Numbered from the stretch's first letter, positions 24,529 through 54,981 are shown. The stretch: 64,000 nucleotides of DNA from an uncultured Oscillospiraceae bacterium (GCA_964461815.1 CAYWVF010000008.1:11638-75637); one strand, 5' to 3'. Numbers and translations are program-made. The notes: generated by a model not told the origin, from the sequence alone.

Positions 24529-25581
24529 TCAGATGATCCAGAAGTTTACATTTTTAACGACGGAATCACTGTTCGTGATATAGACGATCGTGGAGTCGGA
24601 GGATTCGCCGAGTCTTCTGTAATGAGCGTGTGACGAGATGAGCTTGCTCCACTCCTCGTTGCTGACAGCTACTATCGTTGCAGAGTCGGAATCGGAGGAG
24701 TACGATGTTTCGATATGATCTTCATTGTGGATGAGCACGTTTATTTCCTGAGTTGACGTGTCGTCGGAGGTGAACATGTAAGCATAGCCGACCTCAGACT
24801 TTATCATACGTCCGCTTTCAAATGCGTTATCGATCAGAACACGTGTAATATCGGTAGACATATAGGTCGTCCATGAGGTATTGACAACGTGTGCAGCTGC
24901 GTGAATACGCTTACCGTTGTGAGTGTAGTAGGATGAGCCTACCTTGAGAACATAGGTATCGTTGCCGCGCTCGGCTGTTACTGACTGTGTATCGCCGTCC
25001 CATGATACTGTATAGCCGAAGGCTTCAAGGGTCTTCCTGACGGGTGACATAGGAACTGAATTTACAGTCGTTTTGAAGCTTGCCAGCATTGCTTCTGCGA
25101 TATCCTCATCACTTTGATGGAGCGGAGTGTATATTTTATCTATATGGTTGAGTGAGGCTGTGAGTGCATCGTAGCGCTTGCCTACAGCATCCTCGTAGAT
25201 GTTTTCGTATGTTTTGTATGCGTAGGTGTAGCCGTTTTGATTGAACAGCGGCAATATTCCGCTTTCCGTCACCTTGTCGGTAAAGTCCTTTTCGTCTATG
25301 ACAAAAAGAGTGACGACATTTGAGCGTATGCCGGAGATCTCATAATCCTCGGGGTAGAAGGATACGTTGAGCTGATACTTGAAGATGGAGTGCTTTGATT
25401 CGTAGCCGGATATTTCGGTATTTCTGAGCCAAAGCTTTGGCATCCTCAATGCGAAATCATAATCATTATTATAATAGAGTGTGTAGAGTCTGCCGTCATC
25501 TGAAGCGGATGCGGTGAACGTACAGGAAAAAAGCATTATGACGGCGATGAGTATTATCGAAAATCTGGTATACTTTTTCAT
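24529..25581 (-). CDS. secreted hypothetical protein with a copper-amine-oxidase-N-terminal-like (stalk) domain
   Basis: Signal peptide MKKYTRFSIILIAVIMLFSCTFTASA. The segment VRKTLEAFGYTVSWDGDTQSVTAERGNDTYVLKVGS matches the Cu_amine_oxidN1-type repeat pattern. Confidence 0.6.
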   Translation of the reverse strand: MKKYTRFSIILIAVIMLFSCTFTASASDDGRLYTLYYNNDYDFALRMPKLWLRNTEISGYESKHSIFKYQLNVSFYPEDYEISGIRSNVVTLFVIDEKDFTDKVTESGILPLFNQNGYTYAYKTYENIYEDAVGKRYDALTASLNHIDKIYTPLHQSDEDIAEAMLASFKTTVNSVPMSPVRKTLEAFGYTVSWDGDTQSVTAERGNDTYVLKVGSSYYTHNGKRIHAAAHVVNTSWTTYMSTDITRVLIDNAFESGRMIKSEVGYAYMFTSDDTSTQEINVLIHNEDHIETSYSSDSDSATIVAVSNEEWSKLISSHAHYRRLGESSDSTIVYITNSDSVVKNVNFWII

Positions 25582-25610
25582 TGTTGTGACTACCTCTTGA
25601 TGCATTAATT

Positions 25611-25666: not shown

Positions 25667-26965
25667 TCAGACGGACGCACCGTAGACCTCGTCCTCGCTC
25701 CTGACATCGACTGTCTTGATATCAGCGCCGAGTGACTTGAGCTTGTCGATGATGTTTTCATATCCACGCTCGATGTGTTCTATGCCGGAGATCTCGGTAA
25801 CACCCGAGGCTGCCATACCGGCGATAACGAGTGCGCTTCCGGCTCTTAGATCACATGCTTCTATTGGCGCACCCGAGAGCGTCTTCACACCCTCGATGAT
25901 AGCGCTTGAGCCATCCACCTGCACCTTAGCGCCCATGCGCTTAAGCTCATCCATATATTTGAATCTGTTCGGCCAAACCGTCTCTGTCAGTATGCTTGTG
26001 CCCTTCGCAAGACACAGAAGTACAGCCGTCTGGGGATTCATATCTGTCGGATATCCCGGATAGGGCAGTATCTTTATATTAGTACGTGTAAGCTCACCTG
26101 TTCTGCGTACTATTATAGCGTCGCCCAGATCCTCTACCTCAACACCCATCTCCGCAAGCTTTACCGAGATGCATTCGAGGTGCTTCGGGATGACATTGTT
26201 TATTTTTATCTCGCCGCCGGTAGCAGATACCGCTGCCATATATGTGCCGGCTTCGATCTGATCGGGGATGATGGAGTAAAATCCGCCGCGGAGCTGATTG
26301 ACACCGCGTATTTTGATAACATCCGTACCTGCGCCCTTGATATCGGCACCCATGGTGTTAAGGAAGTTCGCAAGATCTACGACATGAGGCTCTCTTGCCG
26401 CATTTTCAAGTATCGTCAGACCCTGAGCCTTGACAGCAGCCATCATAGCGTTCATTGTAGCGCCTACGCTGTTGACGTCGAAGTATACATGCGAGCCTAT
26501 CAAGCCCTGTGAAGCATCGGCATGAACGATACCGTTTTTCACATCGACAGTAGCACCGAGCTGCTCAAAGCTTTTTATATGCTGATCGATAGGACGAACA
26601 CCGCCGAAGTTACAGCCGCCGGACATAGATACATGTGCTGTTTTGAATCGACCGAGAAGTGCGCCGATAAAGTAATATGATGCACGTGTTTTTCTTGTGA
26701 GATCGTCGAAAAGTGCCTTAGATGTACGTATTCTTGAACAGTTGATCTTAACGGTCTTATCGTCTATGAGCTTGACATGTGCGCCGAGCTTTTTCAAAAT
26801 ATTCAAATGAACAGTTACATCACTGATCTTCGGCACATTCTCAATAATGCATGTCCCCTCTACCAGTACGGTAGCGGTAACGATGGCAAGAGCTGCATTT
26901 TTTGCACCGCTTACAGAGACTTCACCATATAAAGGCTTTCCGCCGTTAATAATATATTTTTCCAT
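25667..26965 (-). CDS. murA: UDP-N-acetylglucosamine 1-carboxyvinyltransferase
   Basis: The N-terminus is MEKYIINGGKPLYGEVSVSGAKNAAL, and the active-site region is GGCNFGGVRPID. Length is about 432 aa. Confidence 0.95.
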   Translation of the reverse strand: MEKYIINGGKPLYGEVSVSGAKNAALAIVTATVLVEGTCIIENVPKISDVTVHLNILKKLGAHVKLIDDKTVKINCSRIRTSKALFDDLTRKTRASYYFIGALLGRFKTAHVSMSGGCNFGGVRPIDQHIKSFEQLGATVDVKNGIVHADASQGLIGSHVYFDVNSVGATMNAMMAAVKAQGLTILENAAREPHVVDLANFLNTMGADIKGAGTDVIKIRGVNQLRGGFYSIIPDQIEAGTYMAAVSATGGEIKINNVIPKHLECISVKLAEMGVEVEDLGDAIIVRRTGELTRTNIKILPYPGYPTDMNPQTAVLLCLAKGTSILTETVWPNRFKYMDELKRMGAKVQVDGSSAIIEGVKTLSGAPIEACDLRAGSALVIAGMAASGVTEISGIEHIERGYENIIDKLKSLGADIKTVDVRSEDEVYGASV

Positions 26966-27155: not shown

Positions 27156-27185
27156 ATTATACCACGAAAAATAGTATTATGTCAA
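27156..27185 (-). promoter_or_regulatory. sigma-A promoter upstream of murA
   Basis: On the minus strand: TTGACA, 18-nt spacer, TATAAT. This implies a leader of about 180 nt. Confidence 0.6.
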
Positions 27186-27199
27186 CCTTTTAATAATAT

Positions 27200-28024
27200 T
27201 TAATAAGTTTCGCTTAGAACGATGCTCCCGTCGGTCGCACTGATATAGGTGCTGTTCCCGTCTGCTGTTATTTTTAGCACAGGAAGCAAAATTATTCCTA
27301 TCTTTGTCATTTGCTGCACGATATATCCGTTTTCCACATTATCGATCGAGATAGTATTTACACCGCTGCGCTCCATATGCTCGACATACTTGATGATAAG
27401 CCCGGGAGGATCGATTTCGGTGTAGTCATCGAGCGCGACACCGTCACCTGTGAACCATCGCCCGGAGACCGTCGCACGGTCGTTTTCCTCACACCGTATG
27501 ACGAGCGAGCAGTTCATCACGCTGTCACCGCCAAGCCTCTTGTTGATCGTCAGAGTAAAGCCCAGCTCATCCGATTCGGCGGTGTACCCTGCTGTATGGA
27601 TGCCTGCGGCTTCAAGATAAGCGATAAGGACTGCTTCGTCACCGCTGTTGTATATACCGGGGACAGTGATATCAGCATCGAGCAAGGCTCCGCTTCGCCA
27701 CGTCGCAGTACCGTTGACTCCTGCGACGGTGATCGTGCTGCCTGCGGAGGTGACTTTATCTCCATTCACAAGAGATGAGGCGATGGCGATCTCGCTGTCC
27801 TCGGAGCGTTCTATGACTGTTGTTTTACGACTCCTGTTTTTTTCGGGTATGATATTTTCATCTATCGATATACCCTTGGAGTTCAGATATGCTACCGTGC
27901 CTGCGCTTGCCTCCTTCATGGCGATACGCTCATCCCGCATGAGTGAATAGAGATTTAGCAGCAGGAAGATATTTACCGCAGCGAGCAGCAGAATGATAAT
28001 GTTTTTTACTTTTTTCCACTCCAA
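27200..28024 (-). CDS. YycI-like membrane-anchored regulator of the WalK-type kinase
   Basis: TTG start with AAGGAG 9 nt upstream. The N-terminus (M)EWKKVKNIIILLLAAVNIFLL resembles the YycI MDWNKTK...FLILNxFL anchor. Length is about 274 aa. Confidence 0.6.
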   Translation of the reverse strand: MEWKKVKNIIILLLAAVNIFLLLNLYSLMRDERIAMKEASAGTVAYLNSKGISIDENIIPEKNRSRKTTVIERSEDSEIAIASSLVNGDKVTSAGSTITVAGVNGTATWRSGALLDADITVPGIYNSGDEAVLIAYLEAAGIHTAGYTAESDELGFTLTINKRLGGDSVMNCSLVIRCEENDRATVSGRWFTGDGVALDDYTEIDPPGLIIKYVEHMERSGVNTISIDNVENGYIVQQMTKIGIILLPVLKITADGNSTYISATDGSIVLSETY

Positions 28025-28038
28025 AGCTTTCACACTCC

Positions 28039-29361
28039 TTACTTGGAATAGAGCCAACATGCTTTGCCGGAGGAGGAGTAATACAGGTTGAAATCCTTAA
28101 GCTCACTGCCGTTGGCGGCAGCGGCTATTGATTGTACCGTGGGCAGCAGAGTTGTATTGACCTTATCCGGATGAAAGCTTTTCAGCGAAAGCTCCGCACT
28201 TACAAGCAGTGCGTTTTTATATTCGAATTTAGCGTAATAGCCGTTGTTGTTTATGATCGGGATAGAGGTATATTCGTTGCCGAACAGTATGATGAAGCGC
28301 TCACTGCTCTCGTTATAATATGCTCTGATCACATATGTCCCTATATTACCTGCATAGGAGGAAATAGACTGGCATATCCTGCTTGCTTCACCTATAAGCG
28401 AGGCTTTTTTCGCATCTGATATATCGACTCCGGGCAGCTCATCTACCTCGGGAGAGTAATATGTGAGGTAGCCGCCGGGGAAGATACGAAGTGTGTTCAG
28501 CTCCTCTACGTAAACGCTCACATCGTCTGACTCGGAGTAGCTTTTTGCGGTGTACGGATTGAAATCGAACGCTTCCAGGATAGTGTCTATCGCACGATTG
28601 GAGTCGAGTCCGGATAGCTCGTCGAGGATATTGGATATTCTCAGATCATATACATCCTGCTCGGTATATGATACGATAAATTCCGGAGGTGCGAGACTAC
28701 CCTCCGTTGATTCGGACATAAAGTAATATCCGTTGGGGAGATATTCGTCGAATAAGGACTGCATATACAGTGAATCGCAGCCGGTCTCCGATTTGTAAAT
28801 GCTTCTTGAGTCGGATTTGAAATATATATCCACGGTATCGCCCTCGTCTGCCGTGATGAGAATGTACCTTACGGACAGATCGGAGCTGTTGTTGAGCTCT
28901 GCACCGAGTGCGGCACACAGTGCTCGTACAGGCATCTCACCCTCGAAGTCGAGCAGCATCATGTTTTTCGAAAGCGCATCAGCCCAGTCCTTGTTCGTGA
29001 CCTGAACAGGAGGTGAAGCGGAGGACAGAGCTTCCGCAAGTGTAGGTGATACAGCTTCAAACATTGTCTGTGCATTGACTCTCGATGAGCTGTCGGCGGA
29101 GTATGAGTGATAAAGTCCCATATTCGTGCGGATAGTGCAGCGAAGAGGTGACATGACACTGAGCGTGTATGAGCTCTCCTCGTATTCCTCGAAAAAGTCG
29201 GAGCTGGTCTGCTCGCGTTTAAAGAGTGCGGAGAATGCACTCCCCGAGGAGCTGCCATAGAACCATACGTTATAGGTGAGAATGACAGCAGATATTATCA
29301 ATATAATAATTATAGCCGTTTTTATGGCTTCAATAAGTCGATCAGGTAATTTCTTTATCAT
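28039..29361 (-). CDS. YycH-like membrane-anchored regulator of the WalK-type kinase
   Basis: 440 aa. The N-terminal anchor IKTAIIIILIISAVILTYNVWFYG resembles the YycH anchor. An ATGA overlap couples it to the kinase stop. Confidence 0.6.
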   Translation of the reverse strand: MIKKLPDRLIEAIKTAIIIILIISAVILTYNVWFYGSSSGSAFSALFKREQTSSDFFEEYEESSYTLSVMSPLRCTIRTNMGLYHSYSADSSSRVNAQTMFEAVSPTLAEALSSASPPVQVTNKDWADALSKNMMLLDFEGEMPVRALCAALGAELNNSSDLSVRYILITADEGDTVDIYFKSDSRSIYKSETGCDSLYMQSLFDEYLPNGYYFMSESTEGSLAPPEFIVSYTEQDVYDLRISNILDELSGLDSNRAIDTILEAFDFNPYTAKSYSESDDVSVYVEELNTLRIFPGGYLTYYSPEVDELPGVDISDAKKASLIGEASRICQSISSYAGNIGTYVIRAYYNESSERFIILFGNEYTSIPIINNNGYYAKFEYKNALLVSAELSLKSFHPDKVNTTLLPTVQSIAAAANGSELKDFNLYYSSSGKACWLYSK

Positions 29362-31115
29362 TTTATCACCGAATCAAAGCGAAGCGGAAGCTTTATCGTA
29401 ACTGTAGTGCCGACGTCTAGCGTGGATTCGACGTTGATAGAGCCGTGATGATATTTTACTATCTCACCTGCAATGGCAAGACCGAGACCTGTACCGCCCT
29501 TTTCACGTGAGCGAGCCTTGTCCACTCGGTAAAAGCGCTCGAACAGACGTGGAATATCCTCCTTTGGAATACCGATACCGTTGTCGGTGACTGAAATAGC
29601 GGCCTCATTCTCCGTAGAATGAGCAGCTATCTTTATCCTGCCTCCGTTCGGAGTGTATTTGACGGAGTTTGCTACGATATTCACAACGACCTGCTCTATC
29701 CTTTCACGGTCGCCCTCGATATTCGGAAGTCCCTCCGCAAGATCGATCAGCAGCTCGTGGTTGTGATTTTTAGCCTCGAAGAGCATAGCATCGTAGACAG
29801 AGGTCAGCATCCTATCAAGTGGGAATATAGATATTTTAAGATCAAGCTTACCGTAGTCAAGACGTGAGAGAGTGAGAAGATCCTTTACGATACGTGCCAT
29901 TCTGTCAGCTTCATTATTGATAACGCCCAGGAATTTTTCCGAGAGCTCAGGCGGAAGATCGGGTGCATCGATAAGAGTTTCGGTGTAGCTCTTTATGCTT
30001 GTAAGCGGTGTACGCAGCTCATGCGATACATTCGCCACAAATTCACGTCGTGCCATCTCGAGCTTGTACTGCTCGGTGATATCGTGGATAACTGCCATGA
30101 CTCCCCTGCCGTGATCGGGAGATGCGATAGGTGCAAGGAAGATACGCAGCGTTCGGTTGTCCTGCTTGTACTCGACACCGTTTTGAATGTCGGGAGTGGA
30201 CAGGTCGGCATTGAGTCCGGGGAAGATCATATCGTATGTAAGGTCTTCGGAGAATTTCTTTGACAGCATTTCCTCTGCTGCCGGATTCATATGTATGATA
30301 TGTCCCGAGCTGTCAAAGGCGGCAACACCGTCGGTCATGTGCAGAAAGAGCGTGTTGAGCTTATTACGCTCGTTTTCAACTGTTTTGAGCGTTGACTGCA
30401 ATGCCTCAGCCATGTTGTTAAAGGTCTGCGTGAGCACACCTATCTCATCGTTTGATTGCACGGGAAGTGTACTTGAAAAGTTACCCTCAGCCAACAGCTT
30501 TGCGCCCTTTGTAACATTTTCAAGCGGAGTGGTCATTGTTTTCGAAAGGAAAAAGCTGAGTATAACGGAGAATACAAGACCGAACAAAATGACCTGTGCG
30601 ATAATGGAGAACAGCACCTGCGTAAGATTCGTAAGCTCGACCTTGTTATCCTTGACGTAGACTATATACGTGGCATCATCGGAGGATATCGGGATCGCAA
30701 GATCCATATATTTACTGCTCATGACTATGCTTGAGCCTACCTCACCGTTTATTGCCTTTATTATATTCGGGCTTTGCTCCAATGCAGCTCCGAGCACCTC
30801 ATTTGAGCCTGTGAGGTAACGACCAGATGAATCGAGGATATAGAAGTTTCTGTTCGAGCCTATACCGAGAGGGCCTGCGTATGCGTTTATGATATCACGC
30901 AGCTGTTCCGGGACGTCATCGGAAGCCTCTTCATCGACGGAGGATTCAAGCTCGCTGATGAGACGCTGAGTAAATACCGTCTCCATCTGTGTCTTGAAGT
31001 CGTCAAGATAAAATGTCGTTACACGGCTGACAAGCATCGTTCCGACTACCATCATTACCGACAGTATGAGAAGCACGAGGATCAGCACAAGCTTCATATG
31101 CAGAGAACGAAACAT
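29358..31115 (-). CDS. WalK-architecture sensor histidine kinase (2 TM, ectodomain, HAMP, PAS, HisKA, HATPase)
   Basis: H-box SHELRTPLTSIKSY; N/G boxes DNGIGIP and GGTGLGLAI; HAMP segment PLENVTKGAKLLAEGNF...DEIGVLTQTFNNMA. Confidence 0.85.
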   Translation of the reverse strand: MFRSLHMKLVLILVLLILSVMMVVGTMLVSRVTTFYLDDFKTQMETVFTQRLISELESSVDEEASDDVPEQLRDIINAYAGPLGIGSNRNFYILDSSGRYLTGSNEVLGAALEQSPNIIKAINGEVGSSIVMSSKYMDLAIPISSDDATYIVYVKDNKVELTNLTQVLFSIIAQVILFGLVFSVILSFFLSKTMTTPLENVTKGAKLLAEGNFSSTLPVQSNDEIGVLTQTFNNMAEALQSTLKTVENERNKLNTLFLHMTDGVAAFDSSGHIIHMNPAAEEMLSKKFSEDLTYDMIFPGLNADLSTPDIQNGVEYKQDNRTLRIFLAPIASPDHGRGVMAVIHDITEQYKLEMARREFVANVSHELRTPLTSIKSYTETLIDAPDLPPELSEKFLGVINNEADRMARIVKDLLTLSRLDYGKLDLKISIFPLDRMLTSVYDAMLFEAKNHNHELLIDLAEGLPNIEGDRERIEQVVVNIVANSVKYTPNGGRIKIAAHSTENEAAISVTDNGIGIPKEDIPRLFERFYRVDKARSREKGGTGLGLAIAGEIVKYHHGSINVESTLDVGTTVTIKLPLRFDSVIK

Positions 31116-31807
31116 TATTCAACCACGCTTTCTTTATATTCCTTTGTCGTGTAGATCAGACAGAAGCAGAGTGCCGACAGTATGCCAGATATGATCGAAA
31201 GGAATGTGTTTAAAGTGCTGCTGACGGAGAGCATCGTAATGAACGGCTGTATGTTCGTGCTCACAAACAGCATGTAGGATGCAAAGCAGGATACTGTATT
31301 TGATACGCCGAGTATTATGGTGAATACTGCTGATACGATACCGGAAATGCGGACAGCCGGTATATTTTCACGCTCAATGGCAAAAAGCAGCAGCATAGCT
31401 GCGATGAGCATTATACCGAGAGGTACGAATATCAGTGACAGCAGACTCGTGATGTCGGAGCTTCTAATGAGAGTGTACGCTGCGAGGTTGAACAGAGGTG
31501 TGATAAGCTCCCCTACAGCTCCGACGATAAATGCAGCCTTGTTCTTTCCATAGGCTGACTTAGCGCAAATGAGCAGAAGAATGCCCAATACAAGCGAAAA
31601 TATTGATTTTAACGCAAGATTAATATATGAAAATGATAGGACTGTGCTTGAAAGAAGCTCGGCAGCCACAAAGTCGGAAATGAATGCATTTATAAGCCTT
31701 GATGCTATCGCCCAGATGCTCGTAAATACAAGCATCACGGCGATAACGATACAAAGCGAGTTGTTTTTACTTAAAATACTGCGTGAGCTATTGCGTTCAG
31801 GCTGCAT
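31115..31807 (-). CDS. polytopic membrane protein of unknown function, translationally coupled to the kinase
   Basis: 230 aa with about 6 hydrophobic helices. The stop and start overlap as TAATG at 31113-31117. AGGAG lies upstream of the ATG. Confidence 0.65.
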   Translation of the reverse strand: MQPERNSSRSILSKNNSLCIVIAVMLVFTSIWAIASRLINAFISDFVAAELLSSTVLSFSYINLALKSIFSLVLGILLLICAKSAYGKNKAAFIVGAVGELITPLFNLAAYTLIRSSDITSLLSLIFVPLGIMLIAAMLLLFAIERENIPAVRISGIVSAVFTIILGVSNTVSCFASYMLFVSTNIQPFITMLSVSSTLNTFLSIISGILSALCFCLIYTTKEYKESVVE

Positions 31808-31869
31808 ACGGACTCCTTTCTGTCAGATAAGCTGTTAGTTACCGTGCTTTTAGATCAGACTGCGTGGCG

Positions 31870-53745: not shown

Positions 53746-54981
53746 ATGAATTCAGTAGAGCTTTTGGCTTCAAGGGCAAAAAAAGCATCATTTAAGCTCT
53801 CTGTAGCGGGAAGTGAAGCGAAAAGAGCTGCTTTACGTGAGATATCCGCTGCATTATGGGAGAAAAGAGAAGTAATAATCAAAGCAAACGAAAAGGATAT
53901 AGCTGCCGGAGTGGAAAACGGAATGCGTCCGGGGCTTATCGATAGACTCAGACTTGATGAGAAGCGTATTCGTTCTGCTGCCGACGGTGTAGCATCGATC
54001 GCAGCAAACGAGGATCCGATCGGACTGGTAGACTCCATGTGGACGCTGCCTAACGGACTGAGAGTAGGCAAGAAGCGTGTGCCGCTCGGAGTTGTAGGTA
54101 TCATCTACGAGGCAAGACCTAATGTCACAGCCGATGCTGCGGCACTGTGCCTCATGACGGGAAATGCGTGTGTTCTTAGAGGCGGCAAGGAAGCGATAAA
54201 TTCAAATATTGCCATAGCGGAGATCATGCGTGAAGCCGTGAAGAAAGCGGGCTTCGATGAGGATGTTATAGCACTCGTTACCGACACCTCACGAGACAGC
54301 TCGGTGCAGATGATGAAGGCTACGGGACTGATCGATGTTCTTATCCCGAGAGGAAGCGCAGGTCTTATCAGATCGGTCGTTGAGAATGCGACAGTACCGG
54401 TCATCGAGACGGGGATCGGTATATGTCATGTGTATGTGGACGAGGGAGCAGATCTTGAAATGGCATTGGATATAGTTGAGAATGCCAAGTGCTCACGTCC
54501 GTCGGTGTGCAATGCTATGGAGGTGCTGCTGGTCAACGAGAACGAGGCGGAAGGGTTCCTGCCGATGGTAAAGGAAAGACTTACAAATGTGGAGCTGCGA
54601 GGGTGCGAGGCTACACAGAGGATCATCGAATGCCGTAAGGCGCAGGAGGAGGATTTCCGAACGGAGTTTCTCGACTACATAATGGCTGTGAAGGTAGTAA
54701 AGAATATAGAAGAGGCTATAGATGAGATCAACACGAACGGCAGCGGACACAGTGAAGCTATCGTTACGAGAAGCTATGAGCATTCGGAGCTGTTTCATGC
54801 CAAGGTAGATGCAGCGTGCGTATATGTCAATGCATCTACAAGATTTACGGACGGCGGCGAGTTCGGCTTCGGCGGTGAGATCGGTATTTCAACTCAGAAG
54901 CTTCATGCAAGAGGGCCTATGGGTTTAAAGGAGCTTACATCGTACAAGTATATCATTTACGGAAACGGTCAAATAAGATAG
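53746..54981 (+). CDS. proA: glutamate-5-semialdehyde dehydrogenase
   Basis: 411 aa with PLGVVGIIYEARPNVT and the catalytic Cys region VCNAMEVLLV. Confidence 0.95.
   Translation: MNSVELLASRAKKASFKLSVAGSEAKRAALREISAALWEKREVIIKANEKDIAAGVENGMRPGLIDRLRLDEKRIRSAADGVASIAANEDPIGLVDSMWTLPNGLRVGKKRVPLGVVGIIYEARPNVTADAAALCLMTGNACVLRGGKEAINSNIAIAEIMREAVKKAGFDEDVIALVTDTSRDSSVQMMKATGLIDVLIPRGSAGLIRSVVENATVPVIETGIGICHVYVDEGADLEMALDIVENAKCSRPSVCNAMEVLLVNENEAEGFLPMVKERLTNVELRGCEATQRIIECRKAQEEDFRTEFLDYIMAVKVVKNIEEAIDEINTNGSGHSEAIVTRSYEHSELFHAKVDAACVYVNASTRFTDGGEFGFGGEIGISTQKLHARGPMGLKELTSYKYIIYGNGQIR

Follow-up and report, generated by a model that had tools for sequence, protein, structure and literature searches.

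The closest described counterpart of the locus analysed here is the WalRK-WalHIJ (YycFGHIJ) system of Bacillus subtilis and other Bacilli, whose five-gene wal cluster is described as strikingly conserved and vertically inherited (PMC4801191). The kinase of this system combines two transmembrane (TM) segments, an ectodomain, and HAMP, PAS, HisKA and HATPase domains, and its gene is followed by genes for two single-pass extracytoplasmic proteins of ~440 and ~270 residues, joined by start/stop overlaps. As also in related Oscillospirales-type loci, a gene for a YycF-like response regulator lies upstream of the kinase gene, and genes for a metallo-beta-lactamase and RlmH lie downstream.

Three further systems provide partial parallels. 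In Clostridioides difficile, the wal operon (walA-walR-walK-truA2; PMC9210968) is likewise a Clostridia WalRK-type cell-envelope system with a lineage-specific extra gene at its front; there, a lipoprotein is the product of the extra gene, the operon includes walR, WalK has no cytoplasmic PAS domain, and the operon is described without walH or walI. The mycobacterial MtrAB-LpqB system (cited in PMC9210968) likewise pairs a WalK-like kinase with a co-encoded extracytoplasmic accessory protein, which in this case is a lipoprotein, alongside an adjacent regulator and a kinase that has no PAS domain inside the cell. The nearest precedent for an extra membrane subunit is SpdC of Staphylococcus aureus, a multi-pass membrane protein that is reported to control WalK activity (PMC5854430) and that lies outside the five-gene wal locus as described (PMC4801191).

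Here, we analyse a 64-kb stretch of DNA (hereafter, the window) from an uncultured Clostridia (Oscillospirales-type) bacterium, together with relatives covered by short contigs. The window carries the same kinase layout and the same pair of single-pass partners as the Bacilli locus, but departs from it in several respects: its clade has no walR adjacent to the kinase gene; the window holds no walJ-like gene; its counterparts of WalH and WalI have diverged beyond the reach of the Pfam models; an inserted murA follows the WalI-position gene; a polytopic membrane-protein gene precedes walK; and the whole unit is attached to an infB-rbfA block. Unlike in C. difficile, the extra gene is polytopic, walR is absent locally, and both the PAS domain and the WalH/WalI-position genes are present. 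The locus is probably a reshuffled version of a known system, a modest operon variant rather than a new signalling complex.

Organization of the locus

A sequence-only reading of this DNA had described four chained minus-strand genes, and all four open reading frames (ORFs) were recovered at the coordinates that it gave (Table 1). The fourth ORF spans 27200-28060, and we place its most likely true start at the TTG at 28024, giving 274 aa, because an AAGGAG motif lies 9 nt before this codon and the MEW... start occupies the same position in an alignment with relatives. Coordinates and sequence also agree with the two overlaps in that description, in which the stop codon of the membrane-protein gene meets the kinase start (TAATG, 31113-31117) and the kinase stop meets the start of the 440-aa gene (ATGA, 29358-29361).

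Table 1. Features of the module and its flanks in the window.
Feature	Coordinates	Strand	Basis
WalI/YycI-position protein, 274 aa	27200..28024	(-)	Size, anchor, position, homologues in relatives
WalH/YycH-like protein, 440 aa	28039..29361	(-)	Weak YycH sequence and fold signals, position
WalK-type kinase, 585 aa	29358..31115	(-)	Pfam, NCBIfam
Polytopic membrane protein, 230 aa	31115..31807	(-)	~6 hydrophobic segments, no known family
Spacer, 62 nt, rbfA-DHH to membrane-protein gene	31808..31869	(-)	Sequence, promoter/terminator scan
RbfA fused to DHH/DHHA1 phosphoesterase, 437 aa	31870..33183	(-)	Pfam RBFA, DHH and DHHA1
Consensus sigma-70-type promoter for murA	27156..27185	(-)	TTGACA-18-TATAAT with TG, 12/12 match
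murA (UDP-GlcNAc enolpyruvyl transferase)	25667..26965	(-)	Pfam EPSP_synthase, 310 bits

The gap of 62 nt between the rbfA-DHH gene and the module was confirmed, as was its freedom from terminator-like sites: the spacer carries a ribosome-binding site, GAAAGGAG, and the promoter/terminator scan found in it neither a terminator-like site nor a good promoter-like one. The rbfA-DHH gene, with the NusA and RimP genes upstream of it, is the last gene of a rimP-nusA-infB-rbfA block, an order that recurs in the relative L002, and this block probably supplies transcription into the module. On the other side, Pfam bears out the presence of murA after the module, and the promoter that directly follows the module is conserved in the relative L005. 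The murA leader folds unremarkably, and GCATCC repeats within it were dropped as a candidate element, not being conserved in L005; Rfam returned no match anywhere in the 64-kb window. A germination protease gene lies nearby (Pfam), and the organism is therefore probably a spore-former.

A WalK-type kinase under purifying selection

The assignment of the kinase to the WalK type is borne out by profile comparison. Its best match among 105 NCBIfam families is HK_WalK (NF033092), aligned end to end (kinase residues 1-578 to positions 1-594 of 594) with 484 bits, short of the strict curated cutoff of 725 bits set for this equivalog model; the MtrB model scores 227 bits on the same protein. The Pfam domains comprise HAMP (189-240), PAS_8/PAS_4 (251-350), HisKA (355-422) and HATPase_c (468-579), and a hydropathy scan places hydrophobic segments at 9-27 and 167-185, with an ectodomain of ~140 aa between them (~150 aa in the earlier estimate). 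The order is thus that of WalK (TM, ectodomain, TM, HAMP, PAS, HisKA, HATPase_c), with a cytoplasmic PAS domain, the expected H-box SHELRTPLTS, and H365 as the HisKA histidine. We found at least 120 full-length homologues at 54-84% identity, several of which are named WalK by PGAP. A scan of genome contigs with an alignment of the kinase N-terminal region, for which the patterns chosen from TM segments were poor, matched only the known contig of a metagenome-assembled genome (MAG) and one unrelated kinase.

All four genes of the module are under purifying selection, with dN far below dS in each; the kinase has a dN/dS of ~0.06 and the 230-aa gene one of 0.15-0.23, values that are rough because dS is saturated. 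We regard it as very improbable that the locus is a decaying copy and that a complete walRK-walHI locus exists at another place in the genome: the catalytic motifs and domains of the kinase are all intact, its dN/dS is similar to that of the neighbouring housekeeping genes, and three lineages have preserved the three-gene unit. Moreover, murA comes after the unit here as it does in other lineages whose loci contain walR, and this speaks for the present locus being the original one.

WalH-like and WalI-position proteins

The 440-aa protein has a single hydrophobic segment in a hydropathy scan, located near the N-terminus and forming its anchor, and it shares with WalH this anchor, a size of ~450 aa and a gene directly after walK. 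Pfam YycH (PF07435) matches it with E=1.4e-3 and 18.2 bits, below the gathering score of 27 bits, and residues 11-193 lie in register with model positions 1-170; the same model is matched weakly by four of the seven members of the WalH-like family (best E 1.1e-4) and is the top family each time. A profile search of PDB sequences with the WalH-like family returned no YycH. The AlphaFold model of the protein, built on a four-sequence alignment, is poor (pLDDT 48.8, pTM 0.37). When this low-confidence model was compared by Foldseek with 350,542 PDB chains, the first match was 9a5d_B (E 2.3e-5), which is the YycH chain of a WalK-YycH model, and the second was 2fgt (E 6.6e-3, with an rmsd of 4.3 across 155 alignment columns), the crystal structure of B. 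subtilis YycH; the remaining matches had E values of at least 0.03. The protein is also homologous to the protein encoded after walK in L013 (32%, E 9e-56) and L015 (E 3e-12), two of the regulator-linked loci described below. The weak Pfam match, the two top-ranking folds and the homology to proteins encoded after walRK together uphold its description as YycH-like, an assignment that rests on sub-threshold sequence matches and on the low-pLDDT model. A scan of metagenomes with the WalH-like alignment matched only two short human-gut contigs.

The 274-aa protein resembles WalI in its N-terminal anchor (one N-terminal hydrophobic segment in the hydropathy scan), its size near 280 aa and the place of its gene directly after walH, and it is homologous to the second protein after walK in L013 (28%, E 2e-26) and L014 (E 1e-12). 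With E values as high as 10 allowed, none of six members of the family matched Pfam YycI, a profile search of PDB sequences with the WalI-position family found no YycI, and hhalign detected no similarity between this family and the WalH-like family beyond the anchor. The single-sequence structure model is unusable (pLDDT 37.6), and its PDB matches are noise. The proposed likeness to YycI is consequently retained for size, anchor and position and finds no support in the Pfam, PDB-profile and fold searches. Comparison with the two family models, which the sequence-only reading had put forward as a check that would tell against its claim if the models did not hit, leaves both proteins below threshold, the one with its weak YycH match and the other with no YycI match.

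Orthologous loci that retain walR

Full-length orthologues of the kinase, at 54-66% identity, are encoded in four Oscillospirales-type loci (L013, L019, L014 and L015), all of which have the order NUDIX, OmpR-type regulator, kinase, and two unannotated proteins of 438-454 and 259-272 aa. Half of them (L014 and L015) continue with murA, a Lactamase_B (metallo-beta-lactamase) gene and a SPOUT methyltransferase gene (rlmH), and murA holds the same position in the window and in L005. The regulators of L013, L014 and L015 find their best NCBIfam match in 'response regulator YycF' at 304-309 bits (cutoff 340). A fifth case is provided by a human-gut contig with a WalH-like gene, ~1.8 kb upstream of which lies a walR orthologue.

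A regulator gene thus adjoins the kinase gene in each of these four loci and not in the window. Neighbour joining places the kinases that lack an adjacent regulator (that of the window, P0016 and P0017) in one clade nested among the regulator-linked ones, and a kinase gene without an adjacent regulator occurs only in this narrow, derived clade, within which kinase identity is at least 74%.

Absence of a local regulator

Homology and profile searches both support the earlier statement that the 64 kb contain no receiver-domain gene. With WalR, Spo0A and CheY as queries, tblastn of the 64 kb returned nothing below E=1, and WalR orthologues from the related loci gave no match in the window; a receiver-domain HMM run against 733 six-frame segments of the window reached 9.8 bits at best, on a ProA-type aldehyde dehydrogenase, compared with 192 bits for the positive control. 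This weak match, at 53746-54981, was rejected as a receiver candidate. Orthologues of walR, the NUDIX gene, the walJ-like gene and rlmH were all absent from the window and from the contigs of close relatives. A search of the window for the WalR-box pattern gave 0 matches where 0.15 were expected, numbers too small to inform.

In the DHp domain of the kinase, the regulator-docking helices (SHELRTPLTSIKSYTETL and NNEADRMARIVKDLLTLSRLD) do not differ from those of P0018 and other orthologues linked to a regulator, except for single substitutions in two of the closest seven. No domain of the kinase is better conserved than DHp, with 93-95% inside the clade and 71-87% against the other orthologues in the comparison. 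Because the docking helices match those of walR-linked orthologues, walR is probably encoded elsewhere in the genome, and WalK most likely still phosphorylates its product.

The same helices bear on a second explanation, in which walR was lost and the kinase signals to another regulator, for instance directly to Spo0A, or serves only as a scaffold or phosphatase. The lack of receiver domains in the 64 kb and in the relatives' contigs is in keeping with such a loss, and a probable spore-former with a germination protease gene close by would offer Spo0A as a target; orphan sporulation kinases in clostridia feed Spo0A. However, a new partner would be expected to alter the docking residues, so that their identity in the most conserved domain of the protein counts against a change of partner, and WalR is reported to be essential in the Firmicutes studied (PMC9210968, PMC4801191). 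We consider the loss of walR quite improbable.

The polytopic membrane protein

The hydropathy scan finds six hydrophobic segments in the 230-aa protein, in agreement with the ~6 TM segments first proposed. The protein matches no Pfam or NCBIfam family, and none of the 11 members of its own family matches the Abi/CAAX families at E up to 10. The family amounts to nine clusters at 50% identity among 1.84 billion representatives, and all 11 members together have diverged too far for their alignment to serve in a locus scan.

The gene immediately precedes that of the kinase in the window and in L001, L003/L002 and L006, a place that it keeps in each of the three lineages sampled from the clade; in two of these the TAATG overlap persists despite saturated synonymous divergence, and the third has a 2-nt gap instead. 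The gene upstream of it in L006 encodes an unrelated 474-aa protein rather than RbfA-DHH. The distant members of the family, 27-34% identical, adjoin DHH or unrelated genes and never a kinase gene: P0008 (L010 and L011) and P0013 (L016) come directly after a DHH-DHHA1 gene, with no kinase beside them, and P0010 and P0011 have unrelated neighbours. The regulator-linked orthologous wal loci carry no gene of this kind. Conservation of the 230-aa gene beside the kinase, on which the sequence-only reading had made its claim depend, holds among the closest relatives and not elsewhere.

This distribution can be set against the idea that the protein was recruited within the clade as an extra subunit or modulator of WalK-WalH-WalI, which would act via membrane helix-helix contacts in a way comparable in principle with that of SpdC on WalK in S. 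aureus. The adjacency of the two genes could likewise reflect a functional partnership: walK has the membrane-protein gene immediately upstream in three of three lineages, with a 1-nt overlap in two and a 2-nt gap in the third, this adjacency outlasts the change of upstream neighbour in L006, the membrane-protein gene is under purifying selection, and polytopic modulators of WalK are known (SpdC; PMC5854430). We nevertheless judge recruitment unlikely, since members of the family never adjoin a kinase gene outside the clade and two of them follow DHH genes, the regulator-linked wal loci do without it, and dependence on read-through, following loss of walK's own promoter along with walR, would account for the adjacency just as well. 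Nor does family membership help, as SpdC belongs to the Abi/CAAX family, whereas the 230-aa protein has neither an Abi signal nor one of any other Pfam family.

A role of the membrane protein as a replacement for walR, or as an extra sensor subunit, finds no support: a YycF-like regulator fills the slot in four orthologous loci, the fifth, human-gut contig also carries a walR orthologue, and the family is not kinase-linked outside the window's narrow clade. Between the two readings that had been offered, a partner encoded elsewhere is favoured over the membrane protein as an additional sensor or regulatory subunit, and the membrane protein appears to be mainly a positional neighbour.

A model for a probable rearrangement of the locus

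The explanation that we favour, and hold to be probable, is that the locus is the lineage's own orthologous wal locus, from which walR was moved away by a rearrangement that left the membrane-protein gene in its slot. We propose the following organization and course of events:

(i) The module would be the membrane sensor part of WalRK cell-wall homeostasis, in which WalK is accompanied by WalH-like and WalI-position single-pass extracytoplasmic partners.

(ii) The ancestral gene order would have been NUDIX-walR-walK-walH-walI, after which some lineages would have had murA, a walJ-like gene and rlmH.

(iii) In the narrow clade of the window, a break would have occurred between walR and walK, and walK-walH-walI-murA would have become attached to the end of the rimP-nusA-infB-rbfA/DHH block, behind the small membrane-protein gene. 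Distant homologues of that gene follow DHH genes in two other lineages.

(iv) The sensor genes now probably share a transcript with the membrane-protein gene, one that perhaps includes the upstream operon, and the start-stop overlaps on both sides of walK suggest translational coupling.

(v) Signalling would most likely still run from WalK to a WalR that is encoded elsewhere.

A more far-reaching variant, in which the removal of walR went together with recruitment of the six-segment membrane protein into the WalK-WalH-WalI sensor, or in which WalK was rewired to a different output, seems unlikely to us. If either were true, expression of an essential cell-wall sensor would be tied to a translation-factor operon (nusA-infB-rbfA).

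Concluding remarks

These findings leave the present view of how the Wal system works unaltered. A limited literature search found no report of walK-walH-walI detached from walR, and a unit cut from walR and placed on another operon would be a natural experiment on how far an essential pair needs to be co-expressed. The more useful point may be that a Bacillus-type wal cluster, comprising walR, walK, the genes in the WalH and WalI positions, a walJ-like gene and rlmH, is present in Oscillospirales-type Clostridia, where the accessory proteins have been left unannotated because they are too diverged for current family models.

Architecture of the module

All four minus-strand ORFs that the sequence-only reading had taken for a WalK-type kinase, YycH/YycI-like partners and a membrane protein in the walR slot are present, with TAATG and ATGA overlaps and, after the rbfA-DHH gene, a 62-nt gap in which a promoter/terminator scan found no terminator-like and no good promoter-like site. 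A hydropathy scan gave six hydrophobic segments in the 230-aa protein and two in the kinase, as claimed, and a single N-terminal anchor in each of the 440-aa and 274-aa proteins; the kinase ectodomain is ~140 aa rather than ~150 aa. The likely TTG start of the last ORF lies behind AAGGAG and agrees with the MEW... start of relatives.

Features of the window and of related loci
Feature	Location	Strand	Remark
Polytopic membrane protein, 230 aa	31115-31807	minus	ORF
WalK-type kinase, 585 aa	29358-31115	minus	ORF
440-aa protein	28039-29361	minus	ORF
Last ORF of module	27200-28060	minus	likely start TTG at 28024, giving 274 aa
RbfA fused to DHH/DHHA1 (NrnA-like) phosphoesterase, 437 aa	31870-33183	minus	single protein
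murA promoter, perfect extended sigma-70-type (TTGACA-18-TG-TATAAT)	27156-27185	minus	~190 nt upstream of murA
358-aa secreted-looking protein, copper amine oxidase N-terminal-type domain	24529-25605	minus	between murA and germination protease gene
wal cluster of relatives	L013:8694-13951; L014:8719-16765; L015:8704-16734; L019:8639-13908
474-aa protein, no Pfam family	L006:46-1470		upstream of membrane-protein-walK unit
Perfect 12-bp hairpin (CAGGCTCCAAAG...CTTTGGAGCCTG)	L016:581-643		spacer between DHH gene and membrane-protein homologue

The WalK assignment holds: Pfam finds HAMP, PAS, HisKA and HATPase_c domains, and NCBIfam ranks HK_WalK first, in an end-to-end alignment that scores 484 bits, below that model's strict equivalog cutoff of 725 bits. 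The 90%-identity cluster to which a protein collection assigns the kinase (29361-31115, minus) has as its representative a 54-aa fragment annotated 'RNA polymerase primary sigma factor'; this looks like a database clustering artefact, not biology.

The proposed YycH likeness of the 440-aa protein is partly upheld. Its Pfam YycH match, which lines up in register with the first 170 positions of the model and recurs in four of seven family members, is weak (18.2 bits, cutoff 27). Although AlphaFold modelled this protein poorly (pLDDT 48.8), YycH takes the first two places among the 350,542 PDB chains compared with the model, once as a chain of the WalK-YycH integrative model 9a5d (E 2.3e-5) and once as the crystallised B. 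subtilis protein (2fgt, E 6.6e-3); every other match has E of at least 0.03. For the 274-aa protein, neither Pfam nor PDB profile searches nor a fold search, the last made with an unusable single-sequence model, showed the proposed YycI likeness. The 230-aa protein matches no family in Pfam or NCBIfam.

Orthologous loci with a regulator

Many full-length kinase homologues occur at 54-66% identity, labelled Ruminococcaceae, Oscillospiraceae, Intestinibacillus, Butyricicoccus or Agathobaculum, several of them named WalK by PGAP. We read the gene order at four such loci from different lineages (L013, L014, L015, L019), and all four carry NUDIX, an OmpR-type regulator, the kinase, and unannotated proteins of 438-454 aa and 259-272 aa; the regulator thus occupies the slot that the membrane protein fills in the window. 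NCBIfam 'response regulator YycF' scores highest for the regulators of L013, L014 and L015 (304-309 bits, cutoff 340), and at a fifth locus, L018, a walR orthologue lies ~1.8 kb upstream of a WalH-like gene. After the 259-272-aa gene, L014 and L015 continue with murA, a metallo-beta-lactamase gene that resembles walJ in family, size and position, and an rlmH-like SPOUT methyltransferase. Oscillospirales-type genomes carry a Bacillus-like wal cluster, YycF-like regulator included, which annotation does not recognise because its two accessory anchor proteins have no Pfam match on record.

Homology links the 440-aa and 274-aa proteins to their positional counterparts in walR-containing loci (32%, E 9e-56, and E 3e-12 for the former; 28%, E 2e-26, and E 1e-12 for the latter), and murA lies downstream in the window too. 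This is therefore the orthologous wal locus, and the two genes after the kinase are its WalH- and WalI-position genes.

The five-gene walRKHIJ cluster of Bacilli has been described as ancestral and vertically inherited (PMC4801191). C. difficile has walA-walR-walK-truA2, with a WalK that, unlike the window kinase, lacks a cytoplasmic PAS domain (PMC9210968).

A clade without an adjacent regulator

The claimed absence of a receiver-domain gene from the 64 kb is borne out: tblastn with WalR, Spo0A and CheY gave nothing below E=1, WalR orthologues of related loci found no match, and a receiver HMM (positive control 192 bits) run against all six-frame segments peaked at 9.8 bits. That match is a ProA-type dehydrogenase, not a receiver. 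Orthologues of walR, NUDIX, walJ-like and rlmH genes are absent from the window and from the contigs of L006, L002, L003 and L008.

Only in the window's closest relatives is walR missing before the kinase; the membrane-protein gene fills its slot in L006 (kinase 84% identical) and in L002, L003 and L008 (74%, MAG GCA_012514045.1). A neighbour-joining tree places these kinases together in a single clade, nested among regulator-linked kinases; lacking an adjacent regulator is a derived condition of narrow distribution. All module genes have dN far below dS (dN/dS ~0.06 for the kinase, 0.08 for the 274-aa protein and 0.15-0.23 for the membrane protein, rough values because dS is saturated), so they are not decaying. 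DHp, which docks the regulator, is the most conserved part of the kinase, at 93-95% identity among clade members and 71-87% to the remaining orthologues in the comparison, and regulator-linked orthologues such as P0018 have two helices identical to those of DHp here. From this conservation we infer that the partner is probably still a WalR orthologue, encoded elsewhere in the genome.

Origin of the junction

HMMER, run exhaustively against 1.84 billion representatives, returned only nine clusters of the membrane-protein family. Conservation beside the kinase is confined to the closest clade (family identity at least 40%), where the gene always lies directly upstream, with a TAATG overlap in the window and L003 and a 2-nt gap in L006. 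Outside it, no kinase adjoins the homologues: P0008 (34% identical; L010, L011) lies after a DHH-DHHA1 gene, whose end it overlaps, and before an AsnC-type regulator, P0013 (30%; L016) lies 62 nt after a DHH-DHHA1 gene, and P0010 and P0011 have unrelated neighbours. Owing to the hairpin in the L016 spacer, the two genes there may be transcribed separately. L002 and L003 share the RbfA-DHH/DHHA1 fusion, at 439 aa. The gene call in L010 gives the DHH protein a gene of its own, with 341 aa and a start 114 nt away from the contig end. In L006 the membrane-protein gene is preceded not by rbfA-DHH but by the unrelated 474-aa protein, which reveals another rearrangement breakpoint immediately before the membrane-protein gene.

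On the simplest reading, the membrane-protein gene would once have stood at the end of the rbfA/DHH block, and a rearrangement would have placed walK-walH-walI-murA behind it. Operon constraints may have kept the junction in place, walK having lost its promoter region along with walR; a newly acquired functional link may be the reason instead. As the data do not separate the two, we keep the alternative that the membrane protein is an accessory subunit, which we consider unlikely.

Downstream, conservation with the related locus L005 covers the murA promoter and the first ~35 nt of its leader, which runs to 26965, but not the remainder with its three or four GCATCC repeats. There is no Rfam match, and the leader's folding is unremarkable. 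In L005 the germination protease gene directly follows murA, so the 358-aa protein gene looks like a lineage-specific insertion.

WalK most likely senses cell-wall status together with its membrane partners, the WalH-like and WalI-position proteins, and sets the phosphorylation of a WalR regulator whose gene lies elsewhere, with transcription probably entering from the membrane-protein gene and perhaps also from the rimP-nusA-infB-rbfA/DHH block. The observation behind the sequence-only reading is confirmed and its interpretation supported in part: the module is a known system whose operon has been rearranged in this lineage, a modest variant.
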